From positions 1 through 19,403 of the IMG/VR virus record IMGVR_UViG_2778261570_000017: a stretch of DNA of 19,403 bases; one strand, given 5' to 3'. Below the pieces are notes generated by a model that saw only the letters and a program-made list of their open reading frames with translations, did not search any database and was not told where the DNA came from. This document shows, in pieces, positions 1 through 19,324 of the stretch (positions are counted from its first letter, which is position 1; each line of letters begins with the position of its first letter). Position numbers and translations under genes: made by a program. The DNA comes from a virus (lineage: Duplodnaviria > Heunggongvirae > Uroviricota > Caudoviricetes).

Positions 1-2
1 TT

Positions 3-65
3 ACAGGTATGGAACGCATTAAGGCAGTACGTGAAATTATTCGTGAACGGGGAAAAGCAAAATGA
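3..65 (+). CDS. 3' end of an upstream CDS (reading frame 3, ...TGMERIKAVREIIRERGKAK*), partial; possibly the primase partner of the downstream Rep
   Basis: Open frame runs in from the window edge and stops at TGA 63-65, overlapping the ATG at 62 (ATGA coupling) of the next gene. Identity not determinable from 21 residues. Confidence 0.4.
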   Translation, partial: TGMERIKAVREIIRERGKAK

Positions 66-1468
66 AACTGGCACCGAACGTAAAACTGTTACCGAAAGAT
101 AAACACACTGAGGCGGTTATTTTTGCGGGTGATAATGCTCACTCCTTTGCAGAACATTACATGATTGCACAGGCCAAAAAAGCAGGCGATCCCATCCCTC
201 CGGTTTACCTGGGCCGTTATCAGTTAAGCGAACTGGACAATTTACAGATTGTTGATGAAGGACGATACAGAGCAAAGGTCATACGCGCCGGAAACCTGGA
301 CGATATGCAGATGCTGACCATTGCCACCAAACTGGCGATCGCAGGTGTCCAGGAAGCACGGTTACTTTCAGAGAATTTCGAACTGCTGGAGGACTGGAGC
401 GAGCAACTACCGCGGCTTAAAGAAACCTGGGAACGCGGGGAAAGTCTGGTCATGAATGGTGGAAAGCGAAAAATCACACTTCCCATCTCATGGGGTTCTG
501 AGGGATTCGACGCGCAGCAAAGCTACGTAATTAAGGGGCTTATTCCGGCTGAGTCATTATGCAGCACCTACGGGGCCAGCGGTTCTTATAAATCGTTCCT
601 GGCTATTTCCTGGTCGTGCCATGTTGTCACAGGTATGGCATGGGGAGGCCGCAGGGTAAGTAAGGGCGCTGTTATCTATATCGCTGGCGAAGGCAGTATG
701 GGCGTAAAACGCCGCGTTAAGGCGTGGGAGATAACCCATGACAAGGTGGTTACGGATTTGTGCATCGTTAACGCGCCTGTTTTCCCTGCATCGCCTGACT
801 ATGTGGAGCAGGTTATCAGGACTGCCGGACTTGTTAAGAGCAGAACGGGCGAAAATGTGCGGCTGATTGTGATCGACACGCTGGCCCGTTGCTTTGGTGG
901 GAATGATGAAAATGATTCCCGTGATATGGGCGCATTTATCCAGGGGTGTGACGCGATAAAGCAGGCCACAGGGGCCACGGTACTGGTGGTTCACCATTCC
1001 GGCAAGGATGAAACAAAGGGGGCGCGAGGTTCCAGCGCATTCCGCGCTGCACTGGATGCAGAGTACCGAATCAGCCGGGAAAATTCAGACGTTACAGCAC
1101 TGGTGGCGGCGTGTACGAAGATGAAGGACGCAGAGGAGCCAAAAGAGAGTGCATACGATCTTAAAAGCGTGGAGGTGTTCACCGATACAGATGGCGAAGA
1201 GATTGTGTCCATGGTGGTGATTGACGTTCCCCGCGCCCCTGCTGAACTGGAGCGCATAGAGGAGGCCGGGAACAAGACGGAAAATCACACGGCTTTATGG
1301 GGTTGTATCCGGTCGCGTATACAGCATGGTGATAAATGTACGATCCCGCTGCTACGTGATGACATGAAAAAGCTGGGATATGACACAAAACACCTTAAAC
1401 GATGGTTAGCCAAACTGGAAAAAGACGGCGTGATTTGCGTCGATGGGGATGATGTTCACCCACTGTAA
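62..1468 (+). CDS. Replication ATPase/helicase, RecA-fold (RepA/AAA_25-like)
   Basis: 468-aa ORF with Walker A-like YGASGSYKS, Walker B-like hydrophobic stretch ending in Asp (RLIVIDTLARCF) and VLVVHHSGKD. Coupled to the upstream ORF and followed immediately by an iteron array. Confidence 0.6.
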   Translation: MKLAPNVKLLPKDKHTEAVIFAGDNAHSFAEHYMIAQAKKAGDPIPPVYLGRYQLSELDNLQIVDEGRYRAKVIRAGNLDDMQMLTIATKLAIAGVQEARLLSENFELLEDWSEQLPRLKETWERGESLVMNGGKRKITLPISWGSEGFDAQQSYVIKGLIPAESLCSTYGASGSYKSFLAISWSCHVVTGMAWGGRRVSKGAVIYIAGEGSMGVKRRVKAWEITHDKVVTDLCIVNAPVFPASPDYVEQVIRTAGLVKSRTGENVRLIVIDTLARCFGGNDENDSRDMGAFIQGCDAIKQATGATVLVVHHSGKDETKGARGSSAFRAALDAEYRISRENSDVTALVAACTKMKDAEEPKESAYDLKSVEVFTDTDGEEIVSMVVIDVPRAPAELERIEEAGNKTENHTALWGCIRSRIQHGDKCTIPLLRDDMKKLGYDTKHLKRWLAKLEKDGVICVDGDDVHPL

Positions 1469-1670
1469 AAAGTGGGCGTTAAAAGTGGGAATAGTGGGTA
1501 ATTTAACTGGAATTTAACAAAATCGCCCACTTTCCCACGTGTATACATCCCAAAAAGTGGGCACTAAAAAAATACTTATGAAACAGTACGATATAAAACC
1601 ACAAAATCCCTGGTGGGACGAAGTGGGAAACCATGAAAAGTGGGCAGAAAAAGTGGGCACAGGTGGGCGC
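1468..1670. repeat. Iteron array, (A)AGTGGG(C/A) repeated about 10 times; candidate replication origin
   Basis: AGTGGG at 1471, 1484, 1493, 1556, 1622, 1639, 1652; GGTGGG at 1612 and 1662; inverted copy CCCACT at 1526-1531. Lies directly 3' of the Rep gene. Confidence 0.6.
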
Positions 1671-1922
1671 ATGACAAGAAAAACCAGAGATAAGACAGCA
1701 CCAAAATATAAAGCGTTAGACATGACAGAGCACGCCTTAAAGGTGGCAATCAGAACGATAGACCGCCACGCCGGAGAAGGATACGCGAAAGCACATCCCG
1801 AACTGATAAGCGCATTCATGACCACGGCGGCGGCAAATTTTGCCACGCTGACAGAGCGGGAGATTGCCGAAGCGGAACAGGTGACAACCATCAACGTTAA
1901 AACCGGAGAACAGACAGCATGA
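1671..1922 (+). CDS. Small hypothetical protein (about 84 aa)
   Basis: The ORF track starts at 1539, but the N-terminal 44 codons are translated iteron repeats. The ATG at 1671 follows GGTGGGCGC. Stop TGA 1920-1922 overlaps the ATG of the next gene at 1919 (ATGA). Confidence 0.45.
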   Translation: MTRKTRDKTAPKYKALDMTEHALKVAIRTIDRHAGEGYAKAHPELISAFMTTAAANFATLTEREIAEAEQVTTINVKTGEQTA

Positions 1923-2341
1923 CAGCACAGATAGCGGCTTACGGGCGGCTGGTGGCTGACCCGCAGTTAAAGACCACCAGCAAGGGGACACAAATGGCGA
2001 TGGCGAGTATGGCGGTTCCCCTGCCGTGCAGCCAGGCAGATGACGGAACGGCGACGATGTGGTTATCCGTCCTGGCGTTTGGCAGACAGGCCGACGCACT
2101 GGCCAGACACCACAAAGGCGAACTGGTGAGCGTGGCGGGTAACATGCAGGTAAGCCAGTGGACAGGCCAGAACGGCGAAACGCGGCAGGGCTGGCAGGTT
2201 ATCGCAGACAGCGTAATCAGTGCGCGAACGGCGCGACCGGGCGGCAAAAAAGGTCAACAGGGCCAGGCTACTGACGCGCTGAACAGGGCAAAACAACAGG
2301 CGGGAAATGATGATCCGTACGGGGATAACATACCGTTTTAA
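1919..2341 (+). CDS. ssb: Single-stranded DNA-binding protein (SSB)
   Basis: 140 aa, OB-fold-like N-terminal region, Gly/Gln-rich linker and acidic C-terminal tail ...DDPYGDNIPF, matching the canonical SSB C-terminus D-D-D-I-P-F. Confidence 0.8.
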   Translation: MTAQIAAYGRLVADPQLKTTSKGTQMAMASMAVPLPCSQADDGTATMWLSVLAFGRQADALARHHKGELVSVAGNMQVSQWTGQNGETRQGWQVIADSVISARTARPGGKKGQQGQATDALNRAKQQAGNDDPYGDNIPF

Positions 2342-2358
2342 GAAACGAGTGACAGAAG

Positions 2359-2380
2359 CCGGGATTTTTCCCGGTTTTTT
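2359..2380 (+). terminator. Rho-independent terminator-like hairpin after ssb
   Basis: CCGGGA (2359-2364) / TCCCGG (2369-2374), 4-nt loop, followed by TTTTTT (2375-2380). Confidence 0.6.
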
Positions 2381-2455
2381 ACGGGTCCTCCCGGTGGAGT
2401 GGCCTTGCCACGGGGCGGGAGCGTCGCGGAAAACGGCTGATTTTTGAATTTTCAT
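2378..2455 (+). other. cos-like site copy 1 (cosQ-like TTTACGGGTCCT, 35-nt spacer, cosN-like 12-mer GGGCGGGAGCGT at 2413-2424)
   Basis: Recalled lambda cos junction is TTTACGGGTCCTTTCCGGTGATCCGACAGGTTACG|GGGCGGCGACCT|CGCGGG. Here the first 12 nt match exactly, the 35-nt distance to the GC-rich 12-mer is the same, and the ACG / CGCGG flanks match. Repeated at 4898-4978. Confidence 0.6.
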
Positions 2456-2609
2456 GGGACACCACCACATCAATTAACATGTTGAAAAATAAAATAAAAA
2501 TTGATTTTCACCTGTCCAATTTTGCTTTTTGTGGGACATCTGACCAGTTTGCAATTAATTGAAATATATAAATAAATCAGTTTTTCACCTGCCTGGTGGA
2601 GTTGCCTGT
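2456..2609. repeat. Two degenerate tandem units of about 77 bp, AT-rich, each with GGGACA..., a CAAT..ATTG-type palindrome and TTTTCACCTG(T/C)C
   Basis: Unit A 2456-2532, unit B 2533-2609. GGGACAcc at 2456 and GGGACAtc at 2533. TTTTCACCTGTCC 2505-2517 and TTTTCACCTGCC 2582-2593. Palindromes CAATTAACATGTTG 2471-2484 and CAATTAATTG 2552-2561. Confidence 0.5.
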
Positions 2610-2641
2610 ATCAAAACGTGTTCAGATGGCGGGATATTTAT

Positions 2642-2664
2642 GCCGGATTTTTTCCGGCTTTTTT
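2642..2664 (+). terminator. Rho-independent terminator-like hairpin
   Basis: GCCGGA (2642-2647) / TCCGGC (2653-2658), followed by TTTTTT (2659-2664). Nearly the same hairpin as at 2359-2380. Confidence 0.55.
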
Positions 2665-2765
2665 GCGTCTGAATCTGATTAATCTATTTTTATGATAGAA
2701 ATATGTTTATCTACCACTTTTATCGATCAATAATGATGCCCGTTAATCAAAACGGAGGCGGATTT

Positions 2766-2960
2766 ATGCCAGAGAACAACACCAGAAAGCCGGGTAAAAG
2801 TGCCACTGTGCACATAGACACCGGAACGATGGAGAAGATCGAACGCTATCAGCAGTTCATCAAAGAGAATCACCCGGGTATGCCAGTACCCACGAAAGGA
2901 CAAATCACACGCAGCGCGGTTGAATACTGGTACAAGGCAACGTTAGGAGCCTGGCTATGA
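2766..2960 (+). CDS. Small protein (about 64 aa), possible ribbon-helix-helix DNA-binding fold
   Basis: GGAGG at 2754-2758 lies 7 nt before the ATG at 2766; the ORF-track start at 2703 has no RBS. Predicted strand-helix-helix pattern (ATVHID / TMEKIERYQQFIKEN / GQITRSAVEYWYKA). Stop TGA 2958-2960 overlaps the ATG at 2957 of the capsid gene. Confidence 0.45.
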   Translation: MPENNTRKPGKSATVHIDTGTMEKIERYQQFIKENHPGMPVPTKGQITRSAVEYWYKATLGAWL

Positions 2961-4873
2961 AAACATGGTTTTCCATTAAGGCGGCGGATGTGCGTGGAAC
3001 GGTGGAAATATCCATCTATGAAGAAATTGGCGGCTTCGGTATTACCGCGAAGCAGTTCTCGGAAGATCTGAAAGCCCTTGGCGATGTTTCACATATCGAC
3101 CTACGGATCCATTCGCCTGGCGGTGACGTGTTTGAAGGCATCGCCATCTATAACCTGCTACGGAATCATCCGGCAGACATTACGGTTTATATCGATGGCG
3201 TGGCGGCTTCAATGGCTTCGGTCGTCGCAATGGCTGGCGATCGCGTTGTTATGCCGGAGAACGCCATGATGATGATCCATAAGCCGTGGGGGATCTCTGG
3301 CGGAAATGCTGGCGATATGCGTGATTATGCTGATTTGCTGGATAAAGTGGAAACCGTGTTAATCCCTGCTTATGCCAGAAAAACAGGCAAATCAGCACAG
3401 GAAATTGCCGCCATGCTGGAAGATGAAACCTGGATGGACGGGAAAGAATGCCTTAAGCACGGTTTTGCTGATGAATTGTTGCCATCTGTCAGAGCAATGG
3501 CGCGAATTGAATCGAAACGCACAGGAGATTTTTTACATATGCCGGAAACCATTAAGGGAATGATTACCCCGCCGAAATCACAGGCAAAAAACACCATTAC
3601 AGGCGACCAGGAGCGCATTAACGGCATTAAAGAAATTTTTAGCGTGTTCGGCAACCAGTACGACGGGATCAAAATGTCGTGCCTTGAAGATGCATCCTGT
3701 ACGCTGGAAATGGCCCGGGAACGTCTGCTTAACGAAATGGGTAAAAACCACACACCAACAAATAAAAATATCCCGTCTCATATTTATGCCGGAAACGGGA
3801 ACATAACAGGCGATGCGATTCGCCAGGGCCTTTATTCCCGTCTTGGGTATGAGCGTCCTGAGCGTGGCAATCCTTACGCGATGATGAGTCTTTTTGAAAT
3901 GGCCCAGGCGTCACTGGTTGATCGTGGTATCAGTGTTGGCGGTTTTTTAAATCGCTCGCAGGTCGTTAATGCAGCTTTTACACACAGCAGCAGTGATTTT
4001 TCTCATATTCTGGCTGGCGGTGCTGAAAAATCAGTGCTGAAAGGCTGGCAGGACAGCGGCGAAACGTTCCAGAAGTGGACGCGTAGCGGATCGCTTTCAA
4101 ACTTTCACGAGGCAAAACGCGTTGGCCTGAATGGTTTTTCAAAACTGGATAAAGTGCCGGAAGGCGCGGAATATAAATACATTACTACCAGTGACAAGGG
4201 CGTACCTATTGCGCTGGCCACATACGGGAATATTTTTTCTGTTACCCGCCAGGCCATTATTAACGATGACCTGACCCAGTTAACTACAATCCCCATGGCG
4301 ATGGGGCGTGCAGCCGCCAGAACAGTAGGTAATCTGGTGTATCTCCTGTTAACCGGCAATGGCAAATTCACGGATGGTAAGGCGCTATTCCATGCCGATC
4401 ATAAAAATCTTATTGCGAAGGATATGGACATGGAGGGGCTTAACGAAGCCCGTAAGCTGATGCGCCTCCAGGAGGACGCTAACGGTGATTCGCTGAATAT
4501 TACCCCCGCATTTGTCCTGGTCCCCGCCGCGCTGGAGTCTGCCGCACATCGCGCCATTCTGTCATCGTCATCACTCTTTCAGGTTGATGGTGAGGGCACT
4601 ATCAATCAGAACCCCGGCATCATTAACGTGGTGAAAGATATGGCTGAGGTTATTGTTGAGCCACGTCTTGATAAGAACAATAACAAGGAGTGGTATGTAG
4701 CCGCAGCGAAAGGGATGGACACGATAGAGGTCGCTTATCTTGATGGTATTGATACGCCATATCTTGAGGAGCAGGAGGGCTTTACTGTTGATGGTGTCGC
4801 CTGGAAGGTGCGCATAGATGCAGGTGTTGCGGCCCTCGATTATCGTGGACTACTGAAATCGAGTGGAGCATGA
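2957..4873 (+). CDS. Prohead protease (ClpP/S14-like) fused to HK97-fold major capsid protein, copy 1
   Basis: 638 aa. N-terminal about 190 aa carries protease motifs (HSPGGDVFEG, DGVAASMAS, MMIHKPWG); the C-terminal region is colinear and homologous along its full length with the second copy at 8636-10696. AGGAG RBS at 2944-2948. Confidence 0.85.
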   Translation: MKTWFSIKAADVRGTVEISIYEEIGGFGITAKQFSEDLKALGDVSHIDLRIHSPGGDVFEGIAIYNLLRNHPADITVYIDGVAASMASVVAMAGDRVVMPENAMMMIHKPWGISGGNAGDMRDYADLLDKVETVLIPAYARKTGKSAQEIAAMLEDETWMDGKECLKHGFADELLPSVRAMARIESKRTGDFLHMPETIKGMITPPKSQAKNTITGDQERINGIKEIFSVFGNQYDGIKMSCLEDASCTLEMARERLLNEMGKNHTPTNKNIPSHIYAGNGNITGDAIRQGLYSRLGYERPERGNPYAMMSLFEMAQASLVDRGISVGGFLNRSQVVNAAFTHSSSDFSHILAGGAEKSVLKGWQDSGETFQKWTRSGSLSNFHEAKRVGLNGFSKLDKVPEGAEYKYITTSDKGVPIALATYGNIFSVTRQAIINDDLTQLTTIPMAMGRAAARTVGNLVYLLLTGNGKFTDGKALFHADHKNLIAKDMDMEGLNEARKLMRLQEDANGDSLNITPAFVLVPAALESAAHRAILSSSSLFQVDGEGTINQNPGIINVVKDMAEVIVEPRLDKNNNKEWYVAAAKGMDTIEVAYLDGIDTPYLEEQEGFTVDGVAWKVRIDAGVAALDYRGLLKSSGA

Positions 4874-4880
4874 CAACAAG

Positions 4881-4903
4881 GGCGGCGATAGCCGCCTTTT
4901 TTT
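4881..4903 (+). terminator. Rho-independent terminator-like hairpin after capsid copy 1
   Basis: GGCGGC (4881-4886), loop GATA, GCCGCC (4891-4896), then TTTTTTT (4897-4903). Confidence 0.6.
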
Positions 4904-4978
4904 ACGGGTCCTCCCGGTGGAGTGGCCTTGCCACGGGGCGGGAGCGGCGCGGAAAAAGGCTAGTTTTTGCATTTTCAT
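4898..4978 (+). other. cos-like site copy 2 (cosQ-like TTTACGGGTCCT at 4901-4912, cosN-like GGGCGGGAGCGG at 4936-4947)
   Basis: Direct repeat of 2378-2455 with about 5 mismatches. Sits where lambda cos sits, roughly 190 bp upstream of the Nu1-like TerS start. Confidence 0.65.
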
Positions 4979-5132
4979 TCATCATCATCATCTTTTCAAT
5001 GCATTGAATTTAAACGAATTTTATTTTTAGTATGTTAATTTTGCGTGTTTTTTGGTCAACATATAACGCACTTTATAACGCTTTTTGAGAAGGTGTTCGC
5101 AAGATGCATGTTTAAAACATTCTGGAGCGGGT
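4979..5132. promoter_or_regulatory. cosB-like AT-rich region between cosN-like site and TerS (candidate TerS/IHF binding sites)
   Basis: Perfect palindrome CAATGCATTG at 4997-5006, about 50 bp after the cosN-like 12-mer (the same family of palindrome sits 47 and 128 bp after the cos copy 1 12-mer). Also tandem ATAACGC and near-palindrome ATGTTTAAAACAT. Confidence 0.4.
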
Positions 5133-5618
5133 ATGGATCGAGAACTGAAAAATCTGATGCTGAACATTAACCAACTGGCGGCGATAGCGGGAATATGTCG
5201 TCAGACTGCGGCGGCAAGGCTGAAAAACATCCAGCCAGCCGGAGGACATGACAAGCTGAAACTCTATCGGGTGACTGACATTCTGACCTGTTTTCTTGAT
5301 CTTCCCGTTCCGGCATCACTGGAAGAAATGGAGCCACATGACCGTAAGGCCTGGTATCAGTCTGAACGTGAGCGCCTCAAGTTCGAACAGGAAACGGCGC
5401 AACTCATACCCGCCGATGATGTGCGAAAAGAGATGGCTATATGGGCGGAAATCGTAAGCGAGGAACTGGCAAAACTCCCCAGTATTCTGGCACGTGATGC
5501 GGGGCTTAAACCGATGGCAGTAAACAGAGTGCAGTCAATTATTGACGATTTGTGTAATCAGATTATCAGCCGGATGGTAAAAAATGACGCAGTGAATGAG
5601 GATGTAAAACAGGCATGA
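5133..5618 (+). CDS. Terminase small subunit (lambda Nu1-like)
   Basis: GGAG 5 nt upstream of the ATG at 5133. N-terminal LNINQLAAIAGICRQTAAARL resembles the Nu1 winged-HTH region (recalled lambda Nu1 MEVNKKQLADIFGASIRTIQNW). Position immediately downstream of cos. Confidence 0.7.
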   Translation: MDRELKNLMLNINQLAAIAGICRQTAAARLKNIQPAGGHDKLKLYRVTDILTCFLDLPVPASLEEMEPHDRKAWYQSERERLKFEQETAQLIPADDVRKEMAIWAEIVSEELAKLPSILARDAGLKPMAVNRVQSIIDDLCNQIISRMVKNDAVNEDVKQA

Positions 5619-5864
5619 TAATGACTGGCGCCGTGATCCCCCGTGCTACCGGAATCAGACTACCAGAAGGCAAACAGAAGACCACGCAGTCGGGCAGCGT
5701 CATCGTGTTAATGCATGGCGGCGTATTCTGCTTTTAATTAATATTGCTACCTTTTTTCTTTTTTTATCGCTTAGGCAGGTACTAAATCTTGGACTATGTG
5801 AATGGGGTTACAACTAAATAGTACCTTATAATCATTTAGTTACCTTTTATTTACTTCTTCCTGG

Positions 5865-6977
5865 ATGGAAGGCCCCGCTGCGGCATATCAGACGCTGTCC
5901 CAGCTGGTCTATAAGTTGCTGACCGCCGAACAGGAATACGAGTCGACCGGAAGCGAAGAAACGCTCAAGACAGTCATCAACACCGACTGGGGATTACCTT
6001 ATCTTCCCCGGGCCAGCATGGAGCAACGAAAAAGCGAACTGCTTGAGCAGCGGGCAGAGCCTGTTCCTCCCCGAAGTGTGCCGGATGGCGTTAATTTCCT
6101 TGCGGCGACAGTGGATGTGCAGGCGGGACGTCATCGCCGTTTTGTGGTTCAGGTAACGGGCTATGGCAGTCGTGGCGAACGCTGGATAGTTGATCGTTAC
6201 AACATCACGCAGTCGCTGCGTTGTGACAATAACGGAGAAAGCCTGCGTATTGACCCTGCCGGTTATCCGGAGGACTGGGATGTTCTGCTGACGGATGTTT
6301 TTCATAAAGGCTGGCCGCTGGCTTCTGATCCTTCTCAACAAATGCGACTGATGGCAATGGCGGTGGACTCCGGCGGTGAAGACGGGGTCACTGATAATGC
6401 CTATAAATTCTGGCGTCGTTGCCGTCGTGATGGCCTTGGTAAACGTATTTACCTGTTTAAGGGCGACAGTATCCGTCGCGCAAAACTGATAACCCGTACA
6501 TTTCCGGATAACACCGGACGAACGGGGCGACGGGCGCAGGCTTCGGGTGATGTTCCACTCTGGCTCCTTCAGACGGATGCCCTGAAAGACCGGGTGAATA
6601 ACGCGTTATGGCGTGACTCGCCAGGTCCCGGCTATGTGCATTTTCCTGACTGGCTGGGGAGCTGGTTTTACGACGAACTGACGTATGAAGAGCGGAGCAG
6701 TGACGGAAAGTGGAGTAAGCCGGGTCGCGGTGCCAACGAAGCCTTTGACCTGATGGTGTATGCCGAGGCGCTGGTTATTCTGCATGGGTACGAGAAAATT
6801 CAGTGGCCGGATGCGCCGGAATGGGCATGCAGGGAAACCTGGCTGGAATACGTCAGTGACAACGCTGAGCAGGCTGTTCTGCCGGAACCAGTCTCTCTGC
6901 CTGCCAGAAAAAAGAAACGAAAAAAAGTGACGCCCGATGAGGATAACCCCTGGGTGACTTCCGGAGGATGGTTATGA
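5865..6977 (+). CDS. Terminase large subunit (lambda gpA-like), C-terminal nuclease domain only; N-terminally truncated, possibly a pseudogene
   Basis: 370 aa, colinear with roughly the C-terminal half of lambda gpA as recalled (ATVDVQAGRHRRFVVQVTGYGSRGERWIVDR vs AGIDSQLDRYEMRVWGWGPGEESWLIDR; ANEAFDLMVYAEAL vs RNEALDCFVYALAA). No Walker A segment, and only 246 bp lie between TerS and this ORF. No clear RBS. Confidence 0.75.
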   Translation: MEGPAAAYQTLSQLVYKLLTAEQEYESTGSEETLKTVINTDWGLPYLPRASMEQRKSELLEQRAEPVPPRSVPDGVNFLAATVDVQAGRHRRFVVQVTGYGSRGERWIVDRYNITQSLRCDNNGESLRIDPAGYPEDWDVLLTDVFHKGWPLASDPSQQMRLMAMAVDSGGEDGVTDNAYKFWRRCRRDGLGKRIYLFKGDSIRRAKLITRTFPDNTGRTGRRAQASGDVPLWLLQTDALKDRVNNALWRDSPGPGYVHFPDWLGSWFYDELTYEERSSDGKWSKPGRGANEAFDLMVYAEALVILHGYEKIQWPDAPEWACRETWLEYVSDNAEQAVLPEPVSLPARKKKRKKVTPDEDNPWVTSGGWL

Positions 6978-7186
6978 ATCAGAATGATATTGAAGCCATG
7001 ATCCAGCGTTATATCGATGCGGAAATGGCAGTGCTGGACGGAAAATCCGTCACCTTTAATGGTCAGCAAATGACCATGGAAAATCTGTCCGAGATCCGCC
7101 GGGGACGTCAGGAGTGGGAGCGGCGTCTTGCTGCCCTGACTGCGCGGCGACGGGGGAACCCGGGATATAAACTGGTGAGGTTCTGA
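6974..7186 (+). CDS. Head-tail joining protein (lambda gpW-like)
   Basis: About 70 aa. ATG 6974 overlaps the TerL stop (ATGA); stop overlaps the portal ATG at 7186 (TGATG). C-terminus ...RRRGNPGYKLVRF resembles lambda W ...RRRGPAGFYV. Confidence 0.6.
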   Translation: MNQNDIEAMIQRYIDAEMAVLDGKSVTFNGQQMTMENLSEIRRGRQEWERRLAALTARRRGNPGYKLVRF

Positions 7187-8691
7187 TGGCAATTCTGGAT
7201 GATGTGATTGGTGTTTTTTCTCCAGGCTGGAAAGCGGCGAGGTTGCGCTCAAGAGCGTTAATCCGCGCTTATGAGGCTGTGAAACCCACACGCACACACA
7301 AAGCCCGACGGGAAAACCGTTCTGCCGACCAGCTCAGTAAGTACGGGGCGGTTTCCCTGCGGGAGCAGGCCCGTTTTCTGGATATCAATCATGACCTCGT
7401 AATCGGCGTTTTCGACAAGCTTGAGGAGCGGGTGATTGGTGCAAAGGGGATCATTGTTGAACCCCAGCCATTACTGAAAAACGGTGGTGTGGCTACAGAG
7501 CTGGCAATGATTATCCGTCGTTTGTGGGCGGAATGGTCTGTCAGTCCGGATGTGACCGGGCAGCATACGCGCCCCATGCTCGAACGTCTGCTGTTGCGTA
7601 CCTGGTTACGTGATGGAGAAGTGTTTGCCCAGATGGTCAGAGGCGCAGGTGCCGGGCTGGCACGGACTGCCGGTGTGCCTTTCTGGCTTGAGGCAATGGA
7701 GCCTGATTTTGTGCCCATGCTCAGTGATGAGTCTGCGGGAATGAATCAGGGAGTTTTTCTGGATAAATGGGGCAGGCCGAAAAAATACCTGGTTTATAAA
7801 AATTATCCGGTTCCCGGGCGACAGAGCGAAACCAAAGAGATCGCCGCTGAAAATATGGTGCATCTGAAGTTTACCCGCCGGCTGCACCAGACGCGTGGTA
7901 CATCCATGTTGTCGGGTGTGCTGATACGGATCAGTGCACTTAAGGAGTACGAGGATTCTGAGTTGGTTGCAGCGCGTGTTGCTGCGGCTCTGGGGTTATA
8001 TATTCGTAAAGGAGATGGACAGGATTATGAGGAACCTGTGACAAATAAAGATAATGATCGGGAACTGCATATCACTCCCGGCATTATTTATGACGATCTG
8101 CGTAAGGGGGAAGATATTGGCATGGTCAAATCTGATCGGCCTAACCCTAATCTGGAAACTTTTCGTAATGGTCAGTTGCGGGCTATGGCGGCGGGCACTC
8201 GTCTGAGCTTTTCCAGTGCAGCACGTAACTATAACGGTACCTACAGTTCCCAGCGACAGGAGCTGGTTGAGTCCACCGATGGCTATCTGATCCTGCAGGA
8301 CTGTTTTATTGGTGCTGTAACCCGTCCGGTGTACCGGGCATGGCTGAATATGGTGATTGCCGCGGGGTTGCTGAAAATTCCGTCGGATGTGGATATGAAA
8401 ACGTTATATAACGCAACATATTCTGGCCCTGTGATGCCGTGGATCGACCCAGTCAAGGAGGCTGAAGCCTGGAAAATTCAGATCCGGGGTGGTGCGGCGA
8501 CAGAATCAGACTGGGTGCGCGCCAGTGGTCGTAATCCGGATGACGTCAAACGTCGGCGCAAAGCTGAGATTGATGAAAACCGCAGGCTGGAACTGGTATT
8601 TGATACCGATCCGGCAAGTGATAAAGGAGGTGGTAATGCTGAAACAGAACGCGTGGTTCCGCGGCGAACCGAAGGCCAGCCTGAAGAATAA
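7186..8691 (+). CDS. Portal protein
   Basis: 501 aa, in the canonical position between W and the protease-capsid gene and translationally coupled to W. Confidence 0.7.
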   Translation: MAILDDVIGVFSPGWKAARLRSRALIRAYEAVKPTRTHKARRENRSADQLSKYGAVSLREQARFLDINHDLVIGVFDKLEERVIGAKGIIVEPQPLLKNGGVATELAMIIRRLWAEWSVSPDVTGQHTRPMLERLLLRTWLRDGEVFAQMVRGAGAGLARTAGVPFWLEAMEPDFVPMLSDESAGMNQGVFLDKWGRPKKYLVYKNYPVPGRQSETKEIAAENMVHLKFTRRLHQTRGTSMLSGVLIRISALKEYEDSELVAARVAAALGLYIRKGDGQDYEEPVTNKDNDRELHITPGIIYDDLRKGEDIGMVKSDRPNPNLETFRNGQLRAMAAGTRLSFSSAARNYNGTYSSQRQELVESTDGYLILQDCFIGAVTRPVYRAWLNMVIAAGLLKIPSDVDMKTLYNATYSGPVMPWIDPVKEAEAWKIQIRGGAATESDWVRASGRNPDDVKRRRKAEIDENRRLELVFDTDPASDKGGGNAETERVVPRRTEGQPEE

Positions 8692-10696
8692 TTCCTGGTT
8701 CAGAATGAAGGCGGGTCATAAAAGTGATGCGGATATTTATATCTATGACGAGATTGGTTTTTGGGGTGTTACGGCGAAACAGTTTGTCAGTGATCTGAAT
8801 GCGCTGGGCAATATTACCCACATTAATCTCCATATCAATTCACCGGGTGGCGATGTCTTTGAAGGCATCGCCATTTTTAATGCGCTGAAAAATCACGGAG
8901 CGTCCATCACTGTTTATGTGGATGGCGTTGCCGCATCCATGGCATCGGTCATTGCAATGGTGGGGGATCCCGTCATCATGCCGGAAAATGCATTCATGAT
9001 GATACATAAACCATGGGGAGTGAGTGGTGGCGATGCGGATGATATGCGCGATTATGCTGACCTGCTTGATAAAGTTGAGGCGGTCCTGTTGCCTGCTTAT
9101 GCGCAAAAAACCGGAAAAACGACAGATGAAATTGCTGCCATGCTGAAAGATGAAACCTGGATGTCCGGAGCTGAATGTCTGGCACACGGATTTGCTGACC
9201 AGGTGACACCGAAAGTTAAGGCAATGGCATGCATTCAGTCAAAACGAACAGAGGAATTTAAAAAAATGCCAGAATCCATCCGAAATATGATTATTCCGCC
9301 ACGCAACAGTGCAACGCGTGAACCTGAAAACAAAAATACTGCATCTCAGACACAGGAGCAGACTACGGCTCAGGTTGTCACAACCGCGACCATTGCGAAT
9401 GCGTCTTCCGCAGATGAAAGCAGTATCCGTGCACAGGTGCTGGCTGAGCAAAAAGCACGCGTGAGTGGTATTAATGACCTGTTTGGTATGTTTGGCGGGC
9501 GTTATCAGACATTGCAGGCCAGTTGCCTTTCCGATCCGGAGTGCTCGCTTGAGCAGGCCCGTGAGAAATTACTTAACGAAATGGGTAAGGAATTTTCACC
9601 ATCAAATAAAAACACCCCGTCCCATATTTATGCCGGCAACGGTAATTTTGTGGGAGACGGGATCCGACAGGCGCTGATGGCGCGCGCCGGATTTGCTGAG
9701 CGTGAGCAGGATAACGTCTATAACGGGATGACCCTGCGTGAATATGCCCGAATGTCACTGACAGAGCGTGGTATTGGGGTTTCCGGGTATAACCCGATGC
9801 AGATGGTGGGGGCAGCGTTCACCCACAGCACGTCTGACTTCGGTAATATTCTGTTAGATGTTGCGAACAAAGCCATTCTGCAGGGCTGGGAAGAAGCGCC
9901 TGAAACCTACGAACAGTGGACCCGAAAAGGTCAGCTGTCTGATTTTAAAATCGCTCATCGTGTGGGTATGGGGGGCTTCAGTTCTCTGCGTCAGGTGCGT
10001 GAGGGGGCGGAATATAAGTACGTCACCACCGGAGATAAACAGGCCACGATTGCACTGGCGACCTATGGCGAACTGTTCAGCATCACCCGCCAGGCCATTA
10101 TCAACGATGATCTGAATATGCTGACCGATGTTCCGATGAAACTGGGGCGTGCGGCGAAATCCACGATTGCCGATCTGGTTTATGCCATTCTGACATCTAA
10201 CCCGAAAATCTCCACGGATAATGTGAGCCTGTTCGATAAAGCGAAACATGCAAACGTACTGGAGAGCGCAGCAATGGACGTGGCATCGCTGGATAAAGCC
10301 CGCCAGTTGATGCGCGTTCAGAAAGAAGGTGAGCGTCATCTGAATATTCGCCCTGCGTTCGTACTGGTACCGACGGCGATGGAGTCTGTTGCTAACCAGG
10401 TTATTCGCTCCTCAAGTGTCAAGGGGGCTGACATTAACGCCGGTATTATTAACCCGGTGAAAGATTTTGCGACCGTTATTGCAGAGCCGCGCCTTGATGA
10501 TAACAGCCAGACCACCTTTTATCTGGCTGCGGCGAAAGGTACGGATACCATCGAAGTGGCTTATCTCAATGGGGTGGATACGCCATATATTGATCAGATG
10601 GAGGGCTTCAGCGTGGACGGCGTGACAACGAAAGTGCGTATTGACGCCGGTGTTGCACCAGTTGATCACCGCGGTCTGGTGAAATGTACGGCGTAA
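8636..10696 (+). CDS. Prohead protease (ClpP/S14-like) fused to HK97-fold major capsid protein, copy 2 (canonical head position)
   Basis: Strong RBS AAGGAGGTGG at 8624-8633 before the ATG at 8636; the ORF-track start at 8489 lies inside the portal gene. Same architecture as copy 1, plus a T/Q/A-rich low-complexity insertion of about 45 aa. Confidence 0.85.
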   Translation: MLKQNAWFRGEPKASLKNNSWFRMKAGHKSDADIYIYDEIGFWGVTAKQFVSDLNALGNITHINLHINSPGGDVFEGIAIFNALKNHGASITVYVDGVAASMASVIAMVGDPVIMPENAFMMIHKPWGVSGGDADDMRDYADLLDKVEAVLLPAYAQKTGKTTDEIAAMLKDETWMSGAECLAHGFADQVTPKVKAMACIQSKRTEEFKKMPESIRNMIIPPRNSATREPENKNTASQTQEQTTAQVVTTATIANASSADESSIRAQVLAEQKARVSGINDLFGMFGGRYQTLQASCLSDPECSLEQAREKLLNEMGKEFSPSNKNTPSHIYAGNGNFVGDGIRQALMARAGFAEREQDNVYNGMTLREYARMSLTERGIGVSGYNPMQMVGAAFTHSTSDFGNILLDVANKAILQGWEEAPETYEQWTRKGQLSDFKIAHRVGMGGFSSLRQVREGAEYKYVTTGDKQATIALATYGELFSITRQAIINDDLNMLTDVPMKLGRAAKSTIADLVYAILTSNPKISTDNVSLFDKAKHANVLESAAMDVASLDKARQLMRVQKEGERHLNIRPAFVLVPTAMESVANQVIRSSSVKGADINAGIINPVKDFATVIAEPRLDDNSQTTFYLAAAKGTDTIEVAYLNGVDTPYIDQMEGFSVDGVTTKVRIDAGVAPVDHRGLVKCTA

Positions 10697-10719
10697 ACGT
10701 CGCAGACAACAACGCTGAT

Positions 10720-10772
10720 GGCCCGTAAGGGCTTTTTTTGTACCTGAAATCAGCCCCGTTCAGGGGGCTTTG
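10720..10772 (+). terminator. Two consecutive hairpins after capsid copy 2 (attenuator/terminator-like)
   Basis: GCCC-GTAA-GGGC followed by TTTTTTT (10720-10739), then AGCCCC / GGGGCT hairpin (10752-10769). Confidence 0.45.
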
Positions 10773-10783
10773 CGGAGGCAGTT

Positions 10784-11107
10784 ATGGCAAAGAATTTTGT
10801 GGAAGACGGGAAAACGGTGGAGATTGTCGCTGGCGCAAATATCAGTAGCGGAGAGCTGGTACAGGTGGGCGATATTTTTGCTGTGGCACTGACCGATATT
10901 GCAAAAGGCGAAATTGGGGACGGCATGACTGAAGGTGTATTTATGCTGCCGAAACTGAAAACGGATGATATGAAAACCGGTAAGAAGGTTTATCTGAAGT
11001 CCGGAAAAGTTCAGCTGACTAACAGCGGCTCTGATCCGCTGGTCGGGGTTGTCTGGGCAGATGCCGGAACCAGTGCAGAAGAAGTGCCGGTAAAACTCAA
11101 TGTCTGA
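10784..11107 (+). CDS. Small head protein, DUF2190-like (possible decoration or head-completion protein)
   Basis: 107 aa, GGAGG at 10774-10778, located directly after the major capsid gene. Family assignment is from recollection. Confidence 0.45.
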   Translation: MAKNFVEDGKTVEIVAGANISSGELVQVGDIFAVALTDIAKGEIGDGMTEGVFMLPKLKTDDMKTGKKVYLKSGKVQLTNSGSDPLVGVVWADAGTSAEEVPVKLNV

Positions 11108-11375
11108 TCCCTTTTCCCGGCTGGCAGCGCGTATGGATGCTATCACGGTCAGAAAGATGGGAAAGACAGCCTCGATTAATGATGTCGATATGACCGTGAT
11201 CCCGGGAGAAACACTGGCAGAGCTGAATGCTCTGTCCGGACCTGCGGTCTCTCTGGTTGTGTTTTCTTCGGGATACCGCCCACGGCGCGGGGATCGCGTT
11301 GTTTATGACGGACAACAATGGACGGTCACACGGCATGAACGCTTTAACGGTAAGCCAATGATCTTTATTGAGTAA
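11100..11375 (+). CDS. Head-tail connector / head completion protein (lambda gpFII-like)
   Basis: 91 aa. ATG overlaps the preceding stop. C-terminal RRGDRVVYDGQQWTVTRHE resembles lambda FII RRGDTLTIGEENFWVDRVS. Confidence 0.5.
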   Translation: MSDPFSRLAARMDAITVRKMGKTASINDVDMTVIPGETLAELNALSGPAVSLVVFSSGYRPRRGDRVVYDGQQWTVTRHERFNGKPMIFIE

Positions 11376-11386
11376 AGAGGTGTGGG

Positions 11387-11965
11387 ATGAAGGGGCTTGA
11401 GAATGCCATCCGCAATCTGAACAGCCTTGATACCCGTATGGTGCCACAGGCCAGCGCATGGGCGATAAACCGTGTGGCACAGAAAGCGGTCTCGGTTGCC
11501 ACCCGGCAGGTTGCCGGGAATACCGTTGCGGGAGATAACCAGGTGAAAGGGATCCCCCTGAAACTGGTACGTCAGCGTGTCCGGGTGTTTAAAGCCAGTC
11601 CGTCAGGAAAAATGACGGCCAGGATCCGCGTTAACCGGGGCAATCTGCCCGCCATTAAGCTGGGAACAGCCCGGGTCAGACTGGCCCGGCGTGGTGGAAA
11701 ACTGCAGTACCGTGGCAGTGTGCTGAAGGTGGGTAAATATCTTTTCCGGGATGCGTTTATTCAGCAACTGGCGAATGGTCGCTGGCATGTGATGCGGCGT
11801 ATTGATGGCAAAAATCGTTACCCCATTGATGTGGTGAAAATCCCGCTGTCCGGACCGCTGACACAGGCATTTGAAGATGCCCGCGACCGCATCATTGCTG
11901 CGGAAATGCCGAAACAGCTGGGGTATGCACTGAAACAACAACTGAGGTTATGGCTGACCCGATGA
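11387..11965 (+). CDS. Tail completion protein (lambda gpZ-like)
   Basis: 192 aa, the same length as lambda Z; position between FII-like and U; RBS AGAGGTG upstream. Confidence 0.6.
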   Translation: MKGLENAIRNLNSLDTRMVPQASAWAINRVAQKAVSVATRQVAGNTVAGDNQVKGIPLKLVRQRVRVFKASPSGKMTARIRVNRGNLPAIKLGTARVRLARRGGKLQYRGSVLKVGKYLFRDAFIQQLANGRWHVMRRIDGKNRYPIDVVKIPLSGPLTQAFEDARDRIIAAEMPKQLGYALKQQLRLWLTR

Positions 11966-12363
11966 ACCGACATACACAAATCCGCCAGGCCGTACTGGCA
12001 CGCCTTCGGGAACAGTGTGGAGACAGCGCCACGTTTTTTGACGGGCTTCCGGCATTTATTGATGCGCAGGAACTGCCTGCCGTGGCGGTGTGGCTGAGTG
12101 ATGCTCAGTACACCGGAAAAATGACGGATGAAGATGACTGGCAGGCTGTTCTGCATATTGCCGTCTTCATCCGGGCACAGGCACCGGATTCAGAGCTGGA
12201 TATGTGGATGGAGAGCACCATTTTTCCTGCCCTGAATGATATACCGGCACTTTCCGGACTCATCGACACCCTGATCCCACTCGGTTTTAACTATCAACGT
12301 GATAATGAGATGGCCACCTGGGCGATGGCGGAAATCACGTACCAGATCACGTACACGAATTAA
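11962..12363 (+). CDS. Tail terminator protein (lambda gpU-like)
   Basis: Strong similarity to recalled lambda U (TFFDGLPAFIDAQELPAVAVWLSDAQYTGKMTDEDDWQAVLHIAVF vs TFFDGRPAVFDEADFPAVAVYLTGAEYTGEELDSDTWQAELHIEVF). ATG 11962 overlaps the Z stop (ATGA); the alternative ATG at 11950 is less likely. Confidence 0.85.
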   Translation: MNRHTQIRQAVLARLREQCGDSATFFDGLPAFIDAQELPAVAVWLSDAQYTGKMTDEDDWQAVLHIAVFIRAQAPDSELDMWMESTIFPALNDIPALSGLIDTLIPLGFNYQRDNEMATWAMAEITYQITYTN

Positions 12364-12373
12364 GGAGGTGGCA

Positions 12374-13117
12374 ATGACCACACCAAATCCACTGGCAAAG
12401 ACGAAAGGTGCGGGGACGACGTTCTGGATGTATACCGGCAACGGCGATGCGTTTGCGAACCCTTTGTCGGACACTGACTGGCTGCGTCTTGCGATGGTGA
12501 AGGATCTGCAGCCTGGCGAAATGACCGCTGATGCAGAAGATGACACTTATCTCGATGATGAAGATGCAGACTGGAAAACGACAACCCAGGGGCAGAAATC
12601 CGTCGGTGATACTTCGGCGACGCTGGCCTGGCGTCCGGGTGACAGCGGGCAGAAAAAACTGGTTCAGTTGTTCGACTCCGGTGAAGTCTGCGCGTTTCGT
12701 ATCAAATATCCCAACGGCACTGTTGATGTTTTCCGCGGCTGGCTGAGCTCACTGGGTAAAACCATTGCCTCAAAAGACGTGATGACCCGCACTGTGAAAA
12801 TCAGCGGTGTGGGGCGTCCGTATCTGGCAGAGGAAGGCACTGAAACCGTGAGCGTTACCGGGCTGACGGTGGCACCGGCATCTGCCAGTGTAAAAGTGGG
12901 AGCAACCACCACGCTGACCTTTACAGTAAAACCTGACGGAGCCAGTGACAAAGCGATCAGTGTGCATTCGACAGATCCACAGACTGCCACGGTGACCCTG
13001 AACGGGCTTGTGGCCACGGTGAAAGGCGTGAAGCAGGGCAGTGTCAGCATTGTGGGCATGACTTCTGACGGCGATTTTGTGGCCGTGGCTGCGGTGGCTG
13101 TCAGCGCCGCAGGTTAA
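12374..13117 (+). CDS. Major tail protein (lambda gpV-like) with C-terminal Ig-like domain
   Basis: RBS AAGGAGGTG before the ATG at 12374. N-terminus MTTPNPLAKTKGAGTTFWMYTGNGDAFANPLSD matches lambda V [33 protein letters not shown]. The ORF-track start at 12299 lies inside U. Confidence 0.9.
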   Translation: MTTPNPLAKTKGAGTTFWMYTGNGDAFANPLSDTDWLRLAMVKDLQPGEMTADAEDDTYLDDEDADWKTTTQGQKSVGDTSATLAWRPGDSGQKKLVQLFDSGEVCAFRIKYPNGTVDVFRGWLSSLGKTIASKDVMTRTVKISGVGRPYLAEEGTETVSVTGLTVAPASASVKVGATTTLTFTVKPDGASDKAISVHSTDPQTATVTLNGLVATVKGVKQGSVSIVGMTSDGDFVAVAAVAVSAAG

Positions 13118-13137
13118 CAGGACGATACTCATCATTT

Positions 13138-13161
13138 GCCCCGGTTATCCGGGGCTTTTTT
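13138..13161 (+). terminator. Strong hairpin plus T-run between V and G (terminator/attenuator)
   Basis: GCCCCGG (13138-13144), loop TTAT, CCGGGGC (13149-13155), then TTTTTT (13156-13161). Confidence 0.65.
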
Positions 13162-13177
13162 GCAAGTGGAGAACATG

Positions 13178-13564
13178 ATGTTTCTGAAACAGGGCACGTT
13201 TAATTATGAAAAGCAGTCCGTGGTGCTCAGTGAGCTGTCCGGGCTGCAGAGAATTGAATATCTGGCGTTTGTTCAGCAGCGAACGGCAAAGTTTGATGCC
13301 GGGGAGGGAGAACTGCCGGAGGCTGAACGACAGATTGCTTTTCTGCGGATGGGGATGGATATCAATGCCTGGCTGGTTTCCCGCTCACTGTGGAATGCGG
13401 ATCAGTCTAAGGATGTAGAGACGCTTTGCGCATCCGTTATTACAACATGGTCGTATGATGCCCTGGGTGCGGGGGCGGAGATGGTTCTGTCGCTGAGCGG
13501 TATGGGGGCCATTGATAATGCCGGGGATGATGAGCATGAGGTGCTGACGCCGGAAAAGTCCTGA
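13178..13564 (+). CDS. Tail assembly chaperone (lambda gpG-like)
   Basis: MFLKQGTFNYEKQSVVLSELSGLQRIEYLAF resembles lambda G MFLKTESFEHNGVTVTLSELSALQRIEHLAL. GGAG 6 nt before the ATG at 13178. The ORF-track start at 13136 runs through the terminator hairpin. Confidence 0.85.
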   Translation: MFLKQGTFNYEKQSVVLSELSGLQRIEYLAFVQQRTAKFDAGEGELPEAERQIAFLRMGMDINAWLVSRSLWNADQSKDVETLCASVITTWSYDALGAGAEMVLSLSGMGAIDNAGDDEHEVLTPEKS

Positions 13565-13902
13565 CGCGGGAAATGCAGTTTGTCATGCGGCTTGCCCGGG
13601 AGTTCCGGCGGGCAGACTGGCGGCGGATGCTGTCGGAAATGTCAGCCACTGAGCTTGGTGAGTGGGGCGATTATTTCCGGATGCAGAGCTTCAGTGATGT
13701 GTGGATGGATGCGCAGTTTGCCTCGCTGAAGGCATTGATCGTGAGAATGGTGTCCGGCAGCAGTGATGCTGCGGTGGCTGATTTCAGCCTTTTACCGGAA
13801 GAGAACGGGATACCGGAGCGAACGGACGAAGAACTGATGCATCTTGGGGAAGGTATTTCCGGAGGTGTGCGTTATGGACCAGATAGCCAACCTGGTCATT
13901 GA
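13540..13902 (+). CDS. gpT-like segment, expressed as the G-T fusion by -1 frameshift (-1 frame relative to G)
   Basis: Open frame in the -1 frame relative to G overlapping the G 3' end, typical of the conserved G/G-T tail chaperone pair. Confidence 0.6.
   Translation, partial: GADAGKVLTREMQFVMRLAREFRRADWRRMLSEMSATELGEWGDYFRMQSFSDVWMDAQFASLKALIVRMVSGSSDAAVADFSLLPEENGIPERTDEELMHLGEGISGGVRYGPDSQPGH
13552..13558 (+). promoter_or_regulatory. Candidate -1 programmed frameshift site GGAAAAG producing the G-T fusion
   Basis: The -1 frame is open only from 13540 and G stops at 13562-13564, so the shift must occur in 13540-13561. The only slippery candidate there is G-GAA-AAG (lambda uses G-GGA-AAG). 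Confidence 0.5.
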
Positions 13903-16939: not shown

Positions 16940-17268
16940 TGGAAACTTTTCACTGGAAAATTCGCCCTGATATGACTGTGGCATCGGAACCGAAGGTGGT
17001 GACAGTGAAGCTGGGCGATGGTTATGAACAGCGTCGTGCGGCGGGACTGAATAACCAGTTGTCGACTTACAGCGTGACGATACGTGTTCGTAAATGTGAA
17101 CACCCATCTTTAAAAGCCTTTCTGGAACGGCACGGTGGCGTCCGCGCATTTCAGTGGACGCCACCTTATGACTGGAAGCCGATCAGGGTGGTTTGTCGTA
17201 AATGGTCGGCAAGCGTGGGGGCGTTGTGGGTAACCATAACGGCAGATTTTGAACAGGTCGTGGCATAG
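16939..17268 (+). CDS. Minor tail protein (lambda gpM-like)
   Basis: METFHWKIRPDMTVASEPKVVTVKLGDGYEQR vs lambda M MKTFRWKVKPGMDVASVPSVRKVRFGDGYSQR. ATG overlaps the H stop (TAATG). Confidence 0.9.
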   Translation: METFHWKIRPDMTVASEPKVVTVKLGDGYEQRRAAGLNNQLSTYSVTIRVRKCEHPSLKAFLERHGGVRAFQWTPPYDWKPIRVVCRKWSASVGALWVTITADFEQVVA

Positions 17269-17277
17269 GAGGCTCTG

Positions 17278-17976: not shown

Positions 17977-17980
17977 ACCC

Positions 17981-19263: not shown

Positions 19264-19282
19264 TGAAAAATGTTTTATGTGA

Positions 19283-19302: not shown

Positions 19303-19324
19303 GTCGTTTATGGAGCGTGAGGAA

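Follow-up and report, generated by a model that had tools for sequence, protein, structure and literature searches.

Helper-embedded phage-inducible chromosomal islands (HE-PICIs) were described in 2023 by Tommasini, Mageeney and Williams, with Eco567.11capE (11capE) of E. coli NRG857c as the founder; for 11capE, excision of the composite, its replication and the later excision of the satellite were measured (PMC10111431). A second well-described phage-inducible chromosomal island (PICI), EcCICFT073, has two functional cos sites with different effects on lambda and phi80 transfer, and packaging of multimers in full-size heads has been proposed for it (PMC6092414). Capsid-forming PICIs (cf-PICIs) are told from PICIs by portal, large terminase and head-tail adaptor/connector genes of their own (PMC10085698), and in SaPIbov5, a Staphylococcus aureus pathogenicity island (SaPI), the capsid-protein homologue Ccm is reported to make small heads (PMC8569155). 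Here we analysed positions 1–19,403 of the Caudoviricetes record IMGVR_UViG_2778261570_000017, a stretch of 19,403 nt that we call the window. With a probability of about 0.88, window 1–5860 is the right-hand 5.9 kb of a ~10.7-kb satellite of the Gram-negative PICI type. It is embedded in terL, the large terminase gene of a lambdoid prophage of the cdtI/mEp460 kind; this prophage, the helper, accounts for positions 5861–19403. We classify it as a PICI in the helper-embedded configuration, oriented in the same direction as its target gene, a terL of the GpA family; the site is absent from the list in the 2023 paper, and the integrase lineage is unrelated and falls outside the published HE-PICI integrase clade. 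The configuration itself was already published in that paper (PMC10111431), and the combination of dual cos sites with a capsid gene is already known in EcCICFT073.

Splitting of the helper terL gene

The features on which the reading turns lie around the junction.

5735–5860, no strand: right arm of the satellite attachment (att) site; ~90% identity with the otherwise different O157:H7 and O121 satellites
5861–5867, no strand: attR crossover core CTGGATG, 7 bp; identity to the uninterrupted terL of TUM1881 starts at 5861
5861–6977, + strand: 3' half of the interrupted helper terL; Pfam GpA_nuclease only; aligns to nt 981–2100 of cdtI terL
6974–19403, + strand: structural arm of the helper prophage; 99.5% identical to and collinear with the TUM1881 prophage and its annotation

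The intact large terminase (TerL) of this phage group has 700 aa, with GpA_ATPase at 41–304 and GpA_nuclease at 326–644. The open reading frame (ORF) at 5865–6977 encodes 370 aa and contains the GpA_nuclease domain only; therefore, the window has the 3' half of terL alone. A prophage of E. coli TUM1881 is collinear with window 5861–18400 at 99.49% identity; its terL is intact and provides an uninterrupted target site (attB), and it has the conventional order of lysis genes, cos, small terminase (TerS), TerL and portal. When the terL of phage cdtI was mapped to the complete genome EC42405, it fell into two blocks 10.7 kb apart, nt 1–990 at 99.5% and nt 981–2100 at 98.4% identity, and the core CTGGATG was common to attL and attR of EC42405 and to attB. 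At attL (locus L002 14631–14640) a TAG stop supplied by the satellite stands immediately after the core, and at attR the ATG of the core (5865) opens the nuclease ORF, so that the gene is split exactly at the boundary between ATPase and nuclease. For the window copy, attL would be expected to show terL reading ...TTCTGGATG followed by TAG. All satellite genes in the window and in EC42405 are on the terL strand.

The ORF that follows the TerS gene and contains the nuclease half alone was a clue overlooked in the initial annotation of this DNA, and annotation pipelines label the same 3' half 'terminase gpA endonuclease subunit'. We do not propose that it is expressed separately, because no Shine–Dalgarno-like sequence was found ahead of ATG 5865 in the sequence inspected. 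The right att arm contains direct repeats, ATATTGCTACCTTTT and ATTTAGTTACCTTTT, at 5741–5755 and 5834–5848, 93 bp apart. These are possible arm-binding sites of the integrase, and they are unlike the published HE-PICI motif: the doubled HE-PICI attP motif TGTATTGC, which stands at fixed distances from the centre of attP, had no match in the window including the right arm 5735–5860, while the left arm was covered by a general repeat search in L002 in which TGTATTGC was not searched.

An assembly chimera that joined a satellite contig to a prophage contig has no specific support beyond the fact that the satellite part has no match above 97% in any complete E. coli genome. The junction is identical to the base in many independently finished genomes and has a matching attL partner and a shared 7-bp core, which makes the chance of such an artefact next to negligible.

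Complete nests and their distribution

Full nests were found in three complete genomes, EC42405, O157:H7 3-5-1 and O121 RM8352. Their order is helper Q and lysis genes, cos, TerS and the 5' half of terL; then the satellite, from the integrase rightward; then the 3' half of terL, portal and tails. In EC42405, the satellite runs through a tyrosine integrase, a small helix-turn-helix (HTH) protein, Bro-N, YlcI, an Icd-like protein, DUF4222, a RepA helicase, a small ORF, a single-strand DNA-binding protein (SSB), another small ORF, a protease/capsid fusion and DUF1441, and upstream of the terL 5' half are the helper's own DUF1441 TerS, a lysis cassette (essD, rrrQ, rzpQ) and a Q-type antiterminator. 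The integrase has Phage_integrase and Arm-DNA-bind_3 domains. The HTH protein that follows it (67 aa) matched phrog_66 'excisionase and transcriptional regulator' (E 9e-7), its match to Pfam HTH_17 stayed below cutoff, and it resembled the AlpA of 11capE weakly. The right half of the EC42405 satellite is ~92% identical to the window. The satellites of O157:H7 3-5-1 and O121 RM8352 have a primase in place of RepA and a 93-aa protein in place of TerS; integrase, HTH protein, Bro-N, Icd, DUF4222, SSB and capsid gene are common to all three nests, in this order.

A further copy was found in E. coli RM8082 (locus L001 16044–25905), where a satellite 97% identical to window 1–5703 sits at tRNA-Pro between yejM and yejO with no prophage alongside; its integrase is different and frameshifted, and its att arm is different. 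The presence of a near-identical satellite at tRNA-Pro without a prophage indicates that the block from replication genes to TerS is a mobile unit on its own, and that integration modules have been exchanged between near-identical satellites.

The junction is present in roughly 1–2% of complete E. coli genomes, including O157:H7, O121, O111 and O22 strains. Among 5426 complete E. coli genomes, 34 matched the attR junction over its full length and 35 the attL junction; counting partial matches across the junction in the ranked match list, we estimate that ~100 genomes carry it. A DNA search of a phage database matched the cos and TerS pieces alone, at 76–89% identity, which ruled out a known phage with this gene order. 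Among species-representative genomes, a scan with the integrase returned only integrases that were 31–49% identical (Vibrio, Colwellia and similar genera). The 16-kb record vB_EcoS-606R10 was considered as a packaged satellite and turned out to be a partial genome of an ordinary phage.

These relatives bear directly on how the gene order of the window is to be understood. The initial annotation had pointed out that the replication genes abut cos with no Q, lysis or nin genes where a lambdoid prophage would have them. Indeed, Pfam and phrog matches gave no Q, lysis or nin homologue among the ORFs of 1–5132, and Rep, ori, the small ORF, SSB, the terminators, two cos copies, the capsid cassette and TerS were each found where that annotation had placed them or close by. 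We assign TerS and the capsid cassette, together with the replication module and the two cos sites, to the satellite, and this is the reason why no Q, lysis or nin genes precede them. The Q and lysis genes of the relatives are upstream of the satellite, where they adjoin the cos, TerS and terL 5' half that belong to the helper. The standard lambdoid order, with Q and lysis directly upstream of cos and terminase, was found for the helper in EC42405, 3-5-1, RM8352 and TUM1881 and not for the satellite.

The initial annotation had concluded from the same gene order that the element is not a standard lambda-order prophage, unless Q and lysis genes were found elsewhere in a conventional arrangement shared by close relatives. 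For the prophage this conclusion does not hold: the close relatives have Q and lysis genes upstream of helper cos, TerS and the terL 5' half, and the uninterrupted relative, the TUM1881 prophage, has the standard lambdoid order. Three origins had been offered. A deletion derivative and a differently ordered phage both fail, since removing the satellite restores an intact terL. The third, a composite resembling a satellite and equipped with a structural arm taken over from a lambda-like phage, was right about the satellite and wrong about the borrowing; we read the arm as the downstream part of a normal lambdoid prophage, with the satellite breaking up its terL. A single element, that is, a deletion derivative or re-ordered lambdoid prophage whose replication genes came to lie by cos after loss of Q, nin and lysis genes, would account for the absence of such genes between the replication genes and cos within the window. 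It is scarcely credible given that excising the 10.7 kb between the two CTGGATG cores restores a complete terL, that the integrase gene of the relatives lies directly at the left junction, that their Q and lysis genes stand where they normally would, ahead of the helper cos, and that the replication/cos/capsid/TerS block also occurs at tRNA-Pro without phage genes around it.

Two cos sites with different cosB types

The two cos copies flank the capsid cassette of the satellite.

2375–2615, + strand: cos copy 1; cosQ/cosN block 2375–2455; candidate cosN 2413–2424; cdtI-type cosB with two TTTTCACCTG elements to 2615
4898–5132, + strand: cos copy 2 (repeat D1); conserved block 4898–4978; candidate cosN 4936–4947; mEp460/TUM1881-type cosB up to the start of terS

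The blocks 2375–2455 and 4898–4978 are 94% identical over 81 nt, and a block of ~75 nt from both copies is also found in phages cdtI and mEp460 and in helper prophages. The candidate cosN of copy 1 (2413–2424, GGGCGGGAGCGT) equals bases 1–12 of the phage cdtI record; since that record starts at GGGCGGGAGCGT, 2413–2424 is likely to be a 12-nt cohesive end. The two copies differ in what follows. The region of copy 1 is 76–78% identical to those of phages cdtI and phi458 and to the EC42405 helper cos; its cosB is of the cdtI type, as in the EC42405 helper, and ends where terS would start, with the start codon mutated and no terS after it. Copy 2 matches the mEp460 cos region, with window 4947–5096 being 98–100% identical to the cosB of the TUM1881 helper, and the satellite terS comes next.

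In the satellites of O157:H7 3-5-1 and O121 RM8352, too, the capsid cassette stands between two cos sites (L009 12700–12760 and 15245–15310; the same positions in L010). Their two cosN sequences differ, GGGCGGAGGGGC and GGGCGGGCGG, and one of them fits the cos of the O157 helper; in O121 RM8352, no satellite cosN fits the cdtI-type cos of the resident helper. From the pairing of cosB types in the window, we infer that the two match two TerS specificities that circulate in this phage group, which would make the satellite compatible with either kind of helper.

Mosaic TerS and a diverged capsid gene

Two large satellite genes are related to helper genes of head assembly and packaging, and both differ from them in a distinctive way.

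2957–4873, + strand: fusion of ClpP-like prohead protease, scaffold and major capsid protein, 638 aa; Pfam CLP_protease and Phage_capsid_4; NCBIfam NF045540, 905 bits
5133–5618, + strand: satellite small terminase (TerS); DUF1441, Pfam E 6e-36; phrog_141 'terminase small subunit'

By domain-wise identities, the satellite TerS is a mosaic with a helper-like N-terminal half and a satellite-specific C-terminal half. The first half is 98.6% identical between the RM8082 satellite and the TUM1881 helper. The second half is 94% identical among satellites and ~64% identical to phage TerS, and over the 3' half of the window terS the identity to the TUM1881 helper falls to 45–60%. The two phage TerS types have unrelated N-terminal halves yet a common C-terminal motif. 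TerS of the lambda type contacts cosB through its N-terminal half and TerL through its C-terminal part (PMC9026076). Given these domain roles, the satellite TerS probably shares its cosB target with one helper type and engages TerL differently.

The capsid fusion of the satellite is ~60% identical to the helper's own fusion (8636–10696), and its identity to phage copies does not exceed 57%. In two satellite lineages that are 65% identical to each other, the second being the O157/O121 type, 29–40 aa are deleted from the linker between protease and capsid; such a deletion was found in no phage or helper copy compared. The deletion suggests a specialised role of the satellite fusion, possibly in head size, by analogy with SaPIbov5 Ccm.

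With a protease/major capsid fusion and a small terminase of its own, the element resembles a cf-PICI, or a small autonomous phage, with self-made heads and motor and a need for helper tails alone. By the distinction made for cf-PICIs (PMC10085698), this reading is very improbable: the satellites of the complete relatives are without portal, large terminase and head-tail adaptor/connector genes, and the element measures ~10.7 kb.

Replication module and small genes

The remaining satellite features in the window are as follows.

1–65, + strand: 3' end of the satellite DUF4222 gene; window 1–5703 aligns to RM8082 locus L001 20001–25715, and the DUF4222 coding sequence is annotated at 19751–20065
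62–1468, + strand: replication protein, RepA-family helicase; Pfam AAA_25 E 2e-42; phrog_2850 over the full length, E 3e-185; annotated in relatives as 'helicase RepA family protein'
1470–1659, no strand: putative satellite replication origin, an iteron cluster with seven AAGTGGGMR sites; repeat families D2 and D7
1671–1922, + strand: conserved small satellite ORF, 83 aa; phrog_1231 E 7e-51; annotated hypothetical
1919–2341, + strand: SSB; Pfam SSB E 9e-16; 79% identical to the SSB of HE-PICI 11capE
2354–2379, + strand: terminator hairpin after SSB; -16.3 kcal/mol, z -4.85, then a T run
2642–2658, + strand: terminator hairpin after cos copy 1; terminator scan; -11.5 kcal/mol, z -3.4
2766–2960, + strand: small satellite ORF upstream of the capsid gene, 64 aa; phrog_4934 E 9e-40; position kept in L001, L002, L009 and L010
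4878–4899, + strand: terminator hairpin after the capsid gene and directly upstream of cos copy 2; -16.2 kcal/mol, z -5.66
5621–5737, + strand: truncated gene remnant, 38 codons; phrog_1561, a conserved satellite gene of 93–94 aa

The iteron cluster adjoins the Rep gene. Seven AAGTGGGMR sites were present within 1470–1659, against 0.77 expected in the whole window, and none of 200 shuffles reached eight. The position of the 83-aa ORF is kept in L001 (RM8082), L002, L005, L009 and L010. Both hairpins cited in the initial annotation (2359–2380 and 2642–2664) proved real, folding at 2354–2379 and 2642–2658 with energies below those of shuffled controls, and for each of the three intrinsic hairpins 0/200 shuffles folded as well.

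The match between the window and RM8082 ends at 5703, inside the truncated gene. RM8082, O157:H7 3-5-1 and O121 RM8352 have an intact phrog_1561 gene, which follows the capsid or TerS gene. The possibility that 5621–5737 is a captured 5' end of terL was thereby ruled out; it is the remnant of this conserved small satellite gene. An ORF at 4863–5030 (55 aa, GTG start) overlaps cos copy 2, had no family match and was treated as spurious, probably not a gene. An Rfam scan of the window matched no RNA family; immunity RNAs of the C4/isrK type, known from some PICIs, would sit in the Bro zone outside the window.

Helper structural arm

On the helper side, the following genes were recognised within the arm.

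6974–7186, + strand: head-tail adaptor
7186–8691, + strand: portal (Pfam portal match)
8636–10696, + strand: helper protease/capsid fusion
13873–16938, + strand: tape measure
in 6974–19403, + strand: further head and tail genes, G/T chaperones and the tail tip genes M, L, K and I

The true start of the helper protease/capsid ORF is uncertain: the mechanical start is GTG 8489, inside the portal gene (8489–8691), relatives annotate ATG 8636, and phage records place it later. Helper genomes measure 44.5–47 kb, so the 10.7-kb satellite is about a quarter of their size.

Integrity of the nested pair

Several observations weigh against our reading or parts of it. The left half of the satellite (integrase, regulator and attL) and the helper's terL 5' half, cos, TerS, Q and lysis genes all lie outside the window and were read from relatives that are 90–99% identical. 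The two cos sites are 2.5 kb apart and could equally harm packaging. The satellite TerS has the DNA-binding half of the helper, and may not redirect specificity as the TerS of SaPIs or Rpp, the packaging protein of EcCICFT073, does. The small gene at 5621–5737 is truncated in the window copy, which is possible decay. In O121 RM8352, no satellite cos fits the cos of the resident helper, whose capsid gene is interrupted by an internal stop; given this mismatch, some nested pairs are probably non-productive.

Part of these observations would also be expected if the satellite were real and this copy dead, a fossil pair in which the satellite cannot excise and the terminase of the prophage is inactivated. 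The reduction of a 93–94-aa satellite gene to 38 codons, the O121 nest with its internal stop and non-matching cos types, and the position of the integrase outside the window are all compatible with such a dead insertion, as is the statement, in the Discussion of the 2023 paper, that many HE-PICI helpers look truncated (PMC10111431). Against it, the main satellite ORFs (Rep, SSB, capsid fusion and TerS) are intact, the helper arm has full-length ORFs and agrees with an uninterrupted prophage at 99.5% identity over 12.5 kb, and the attR core and arm are intact. In addition, cos copy 2 is 98–100% identical to a cosB of the helper type, suggesting recent exchange. We therefore regard a dead insertion as unlikely, and favour a PICI-type satellite embedded in the helper terL that may still be able to leave it.

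Proposed mechanism and implications

The following steps are drawn by analogy with HE-PICI 11capE and PICI EcCICFT073. A late transcript of the helper, antiterminated by Q, would continue beyond terS and the 5' half of terL into the satellite, passing its three intrinsic terminators; the remark in the initial annotation that late-gene expression would need antitermination fits such read-through, dependent on Q and coming from the late operon of the helper. Next, the element would be excised by its integrase together with an AlpA-like partner, and only this excision would restore terL, which both partners would need. The satellite would then replicate from the iteron origin by means of the RepA helicase and SSB. 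Its concatemers would be cut at cos by the helper TerL, and the two cosB types would let either kind of helper start packaging. The satellite TerS and the protease/capsid paralogue with the shortened linker would probably bias packaging and head assembly toward the satellite, while the portal, TerL and tails would come from the helper. By analogy, packaging of multimers in full-size heads is as possible as the formation of small heads.

More tentatively, and at somewhat less than even odds, we propose that helper-embedding arose a second time, when an integrase unrelated to the HE-PICI clade came to target the domain boundary of a GpA-type terL and to split it cleanly, with a satellite stop after the core and the ATG of the core opening the nuclease ORF. 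In the same proposal, the satellites would hedge between helpers by two cos sites with different cosB (in the O157/O121 satellites also different cosN) and by a mosaic TerS whose DNA-binding half has been repeatedly swapped with helper alleles, while its satellite tail was kept. If this is true, neither the site nor the lineage has been described before, and the pair would offer a natural system in which to study terminase specificity and the regulated integrity of terL.

The GpA-type terL site and the unrelated integrase lineage extend the concept of the helper-embedded satellite, and they suggest more than one evolutionary origin for the targeting of helper late genes. In strains that bear the junction, the satellite must have an effect on the remaining ability of the host prophage to package DNA. 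The two cos sites and the mosaic TerS offer testable leads on how satellites may keep pace with the packaging specificities of their helpers. There is also a practical side: prophage finders will report such a nest as a single odd phage, and recognising the nest avoids describing a false novel architecture.

Comparison with known satellites

The closest likeness is to HE-PICI 11capE. Both are nested in a late gene of the helper, here in a terL split at CTGGATG with its halves 10.7 kb apart and the satellite genes on the terL strand, and both have the four-zone order of integration, Bro, replication and late genes. They share the order YlcI, Icd-like, DUF4222, replicase, small ORF, SSB and capsid, with an SSB that is 79% identical, and the late zone of 11capE also has a capsid gene of the helper type and a cos site. 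The two differ in their targets. Here the target is a GpA-family terL, entered at the GpA_ATPase/GpA_nuclease boundary, whereas the terminase sites of the 2023 paper are Terminase_1:132, :245 and :246; the string 'GpA' occurs nowhere in its text or supplements, and by these the site is not among the 14 (or 15) late-gene sites catalogued there (PMC10111431). In the literature searched, we found no description of a satellite in a GpA-type terL. The integrases also differ: that of EC42405 scored 84.7 bits, at 25% identity, to the 11capE integrase, against the 400-bit cutoff of the survey in that paper, which places it outside the clade. Further, the replication protein here is a helicase of the RepA type instead of a primase, and a TerS is present, whereas 11capE lacks terS according to that paper.

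Compared with cf-PICIs such as EcCIEDL933, the satellite likewise has its own capsid protein of the HK97 type with a protease, and a TerS. It differs in having no TerL, portal or connector genes, in the window or in the complete relatives, so that heads and motor must depend on the helper. As with SaPIbov5 Ccm, the satellite encodes a paralogue of the major capsid protein of its helper that has diverged from it; here it is a protease–scaffold–capsid fusion, and the one pointer to size redirection is the conserved linker deletion.

Several general features of Gram-negative PICIs (PMC6092414; PMC10085698) are also present. The satellite has its own replicase with an adjacent putative origin (RepA-family helicase, seven iterons) and SSB, and capsid, TerS and cos genes within the ~10–15 kb usual for the group, its relatives measuring 10.7 kb; no tail, lysis, portal or terL genes were found in the satellites of EC42405, O157:H7 3-5-1 and O121 RM8352. 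With EcCICFT073 and the PICIs of the cos type it shares a replicase with putative origin and a capsid homologue and, as seen in its complete relatives, an integrase and a putative AlpA-like regulator (PMC6092414; PMC6739421; PMC9026076). As in EcCICFT073, there are two functional-looking cos sites with helper-like cosQ/cosN, and a small winged-helix packaging gene stands directly after cos, like terS in a phage. Since two cos sites are documented in EcCICFT073, dual cos is a known PICI trait. EcCICFT073 is chromosomal and not embedded in a helper, and its helpers are lambda or phi80, whereas those here are cdtI/mEp460-like. A further difference lies in the packaging protein. EcCICFT073 has Rpp, a partner of the phage TerS that recognises a cosB unlike that of the phage. 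Here it is a true DUF1441 homologue of TerS; its DNA-binding half and its cosB are nearly identical to those of one helper type, and the C-terminal half alone is specific to the satellite.

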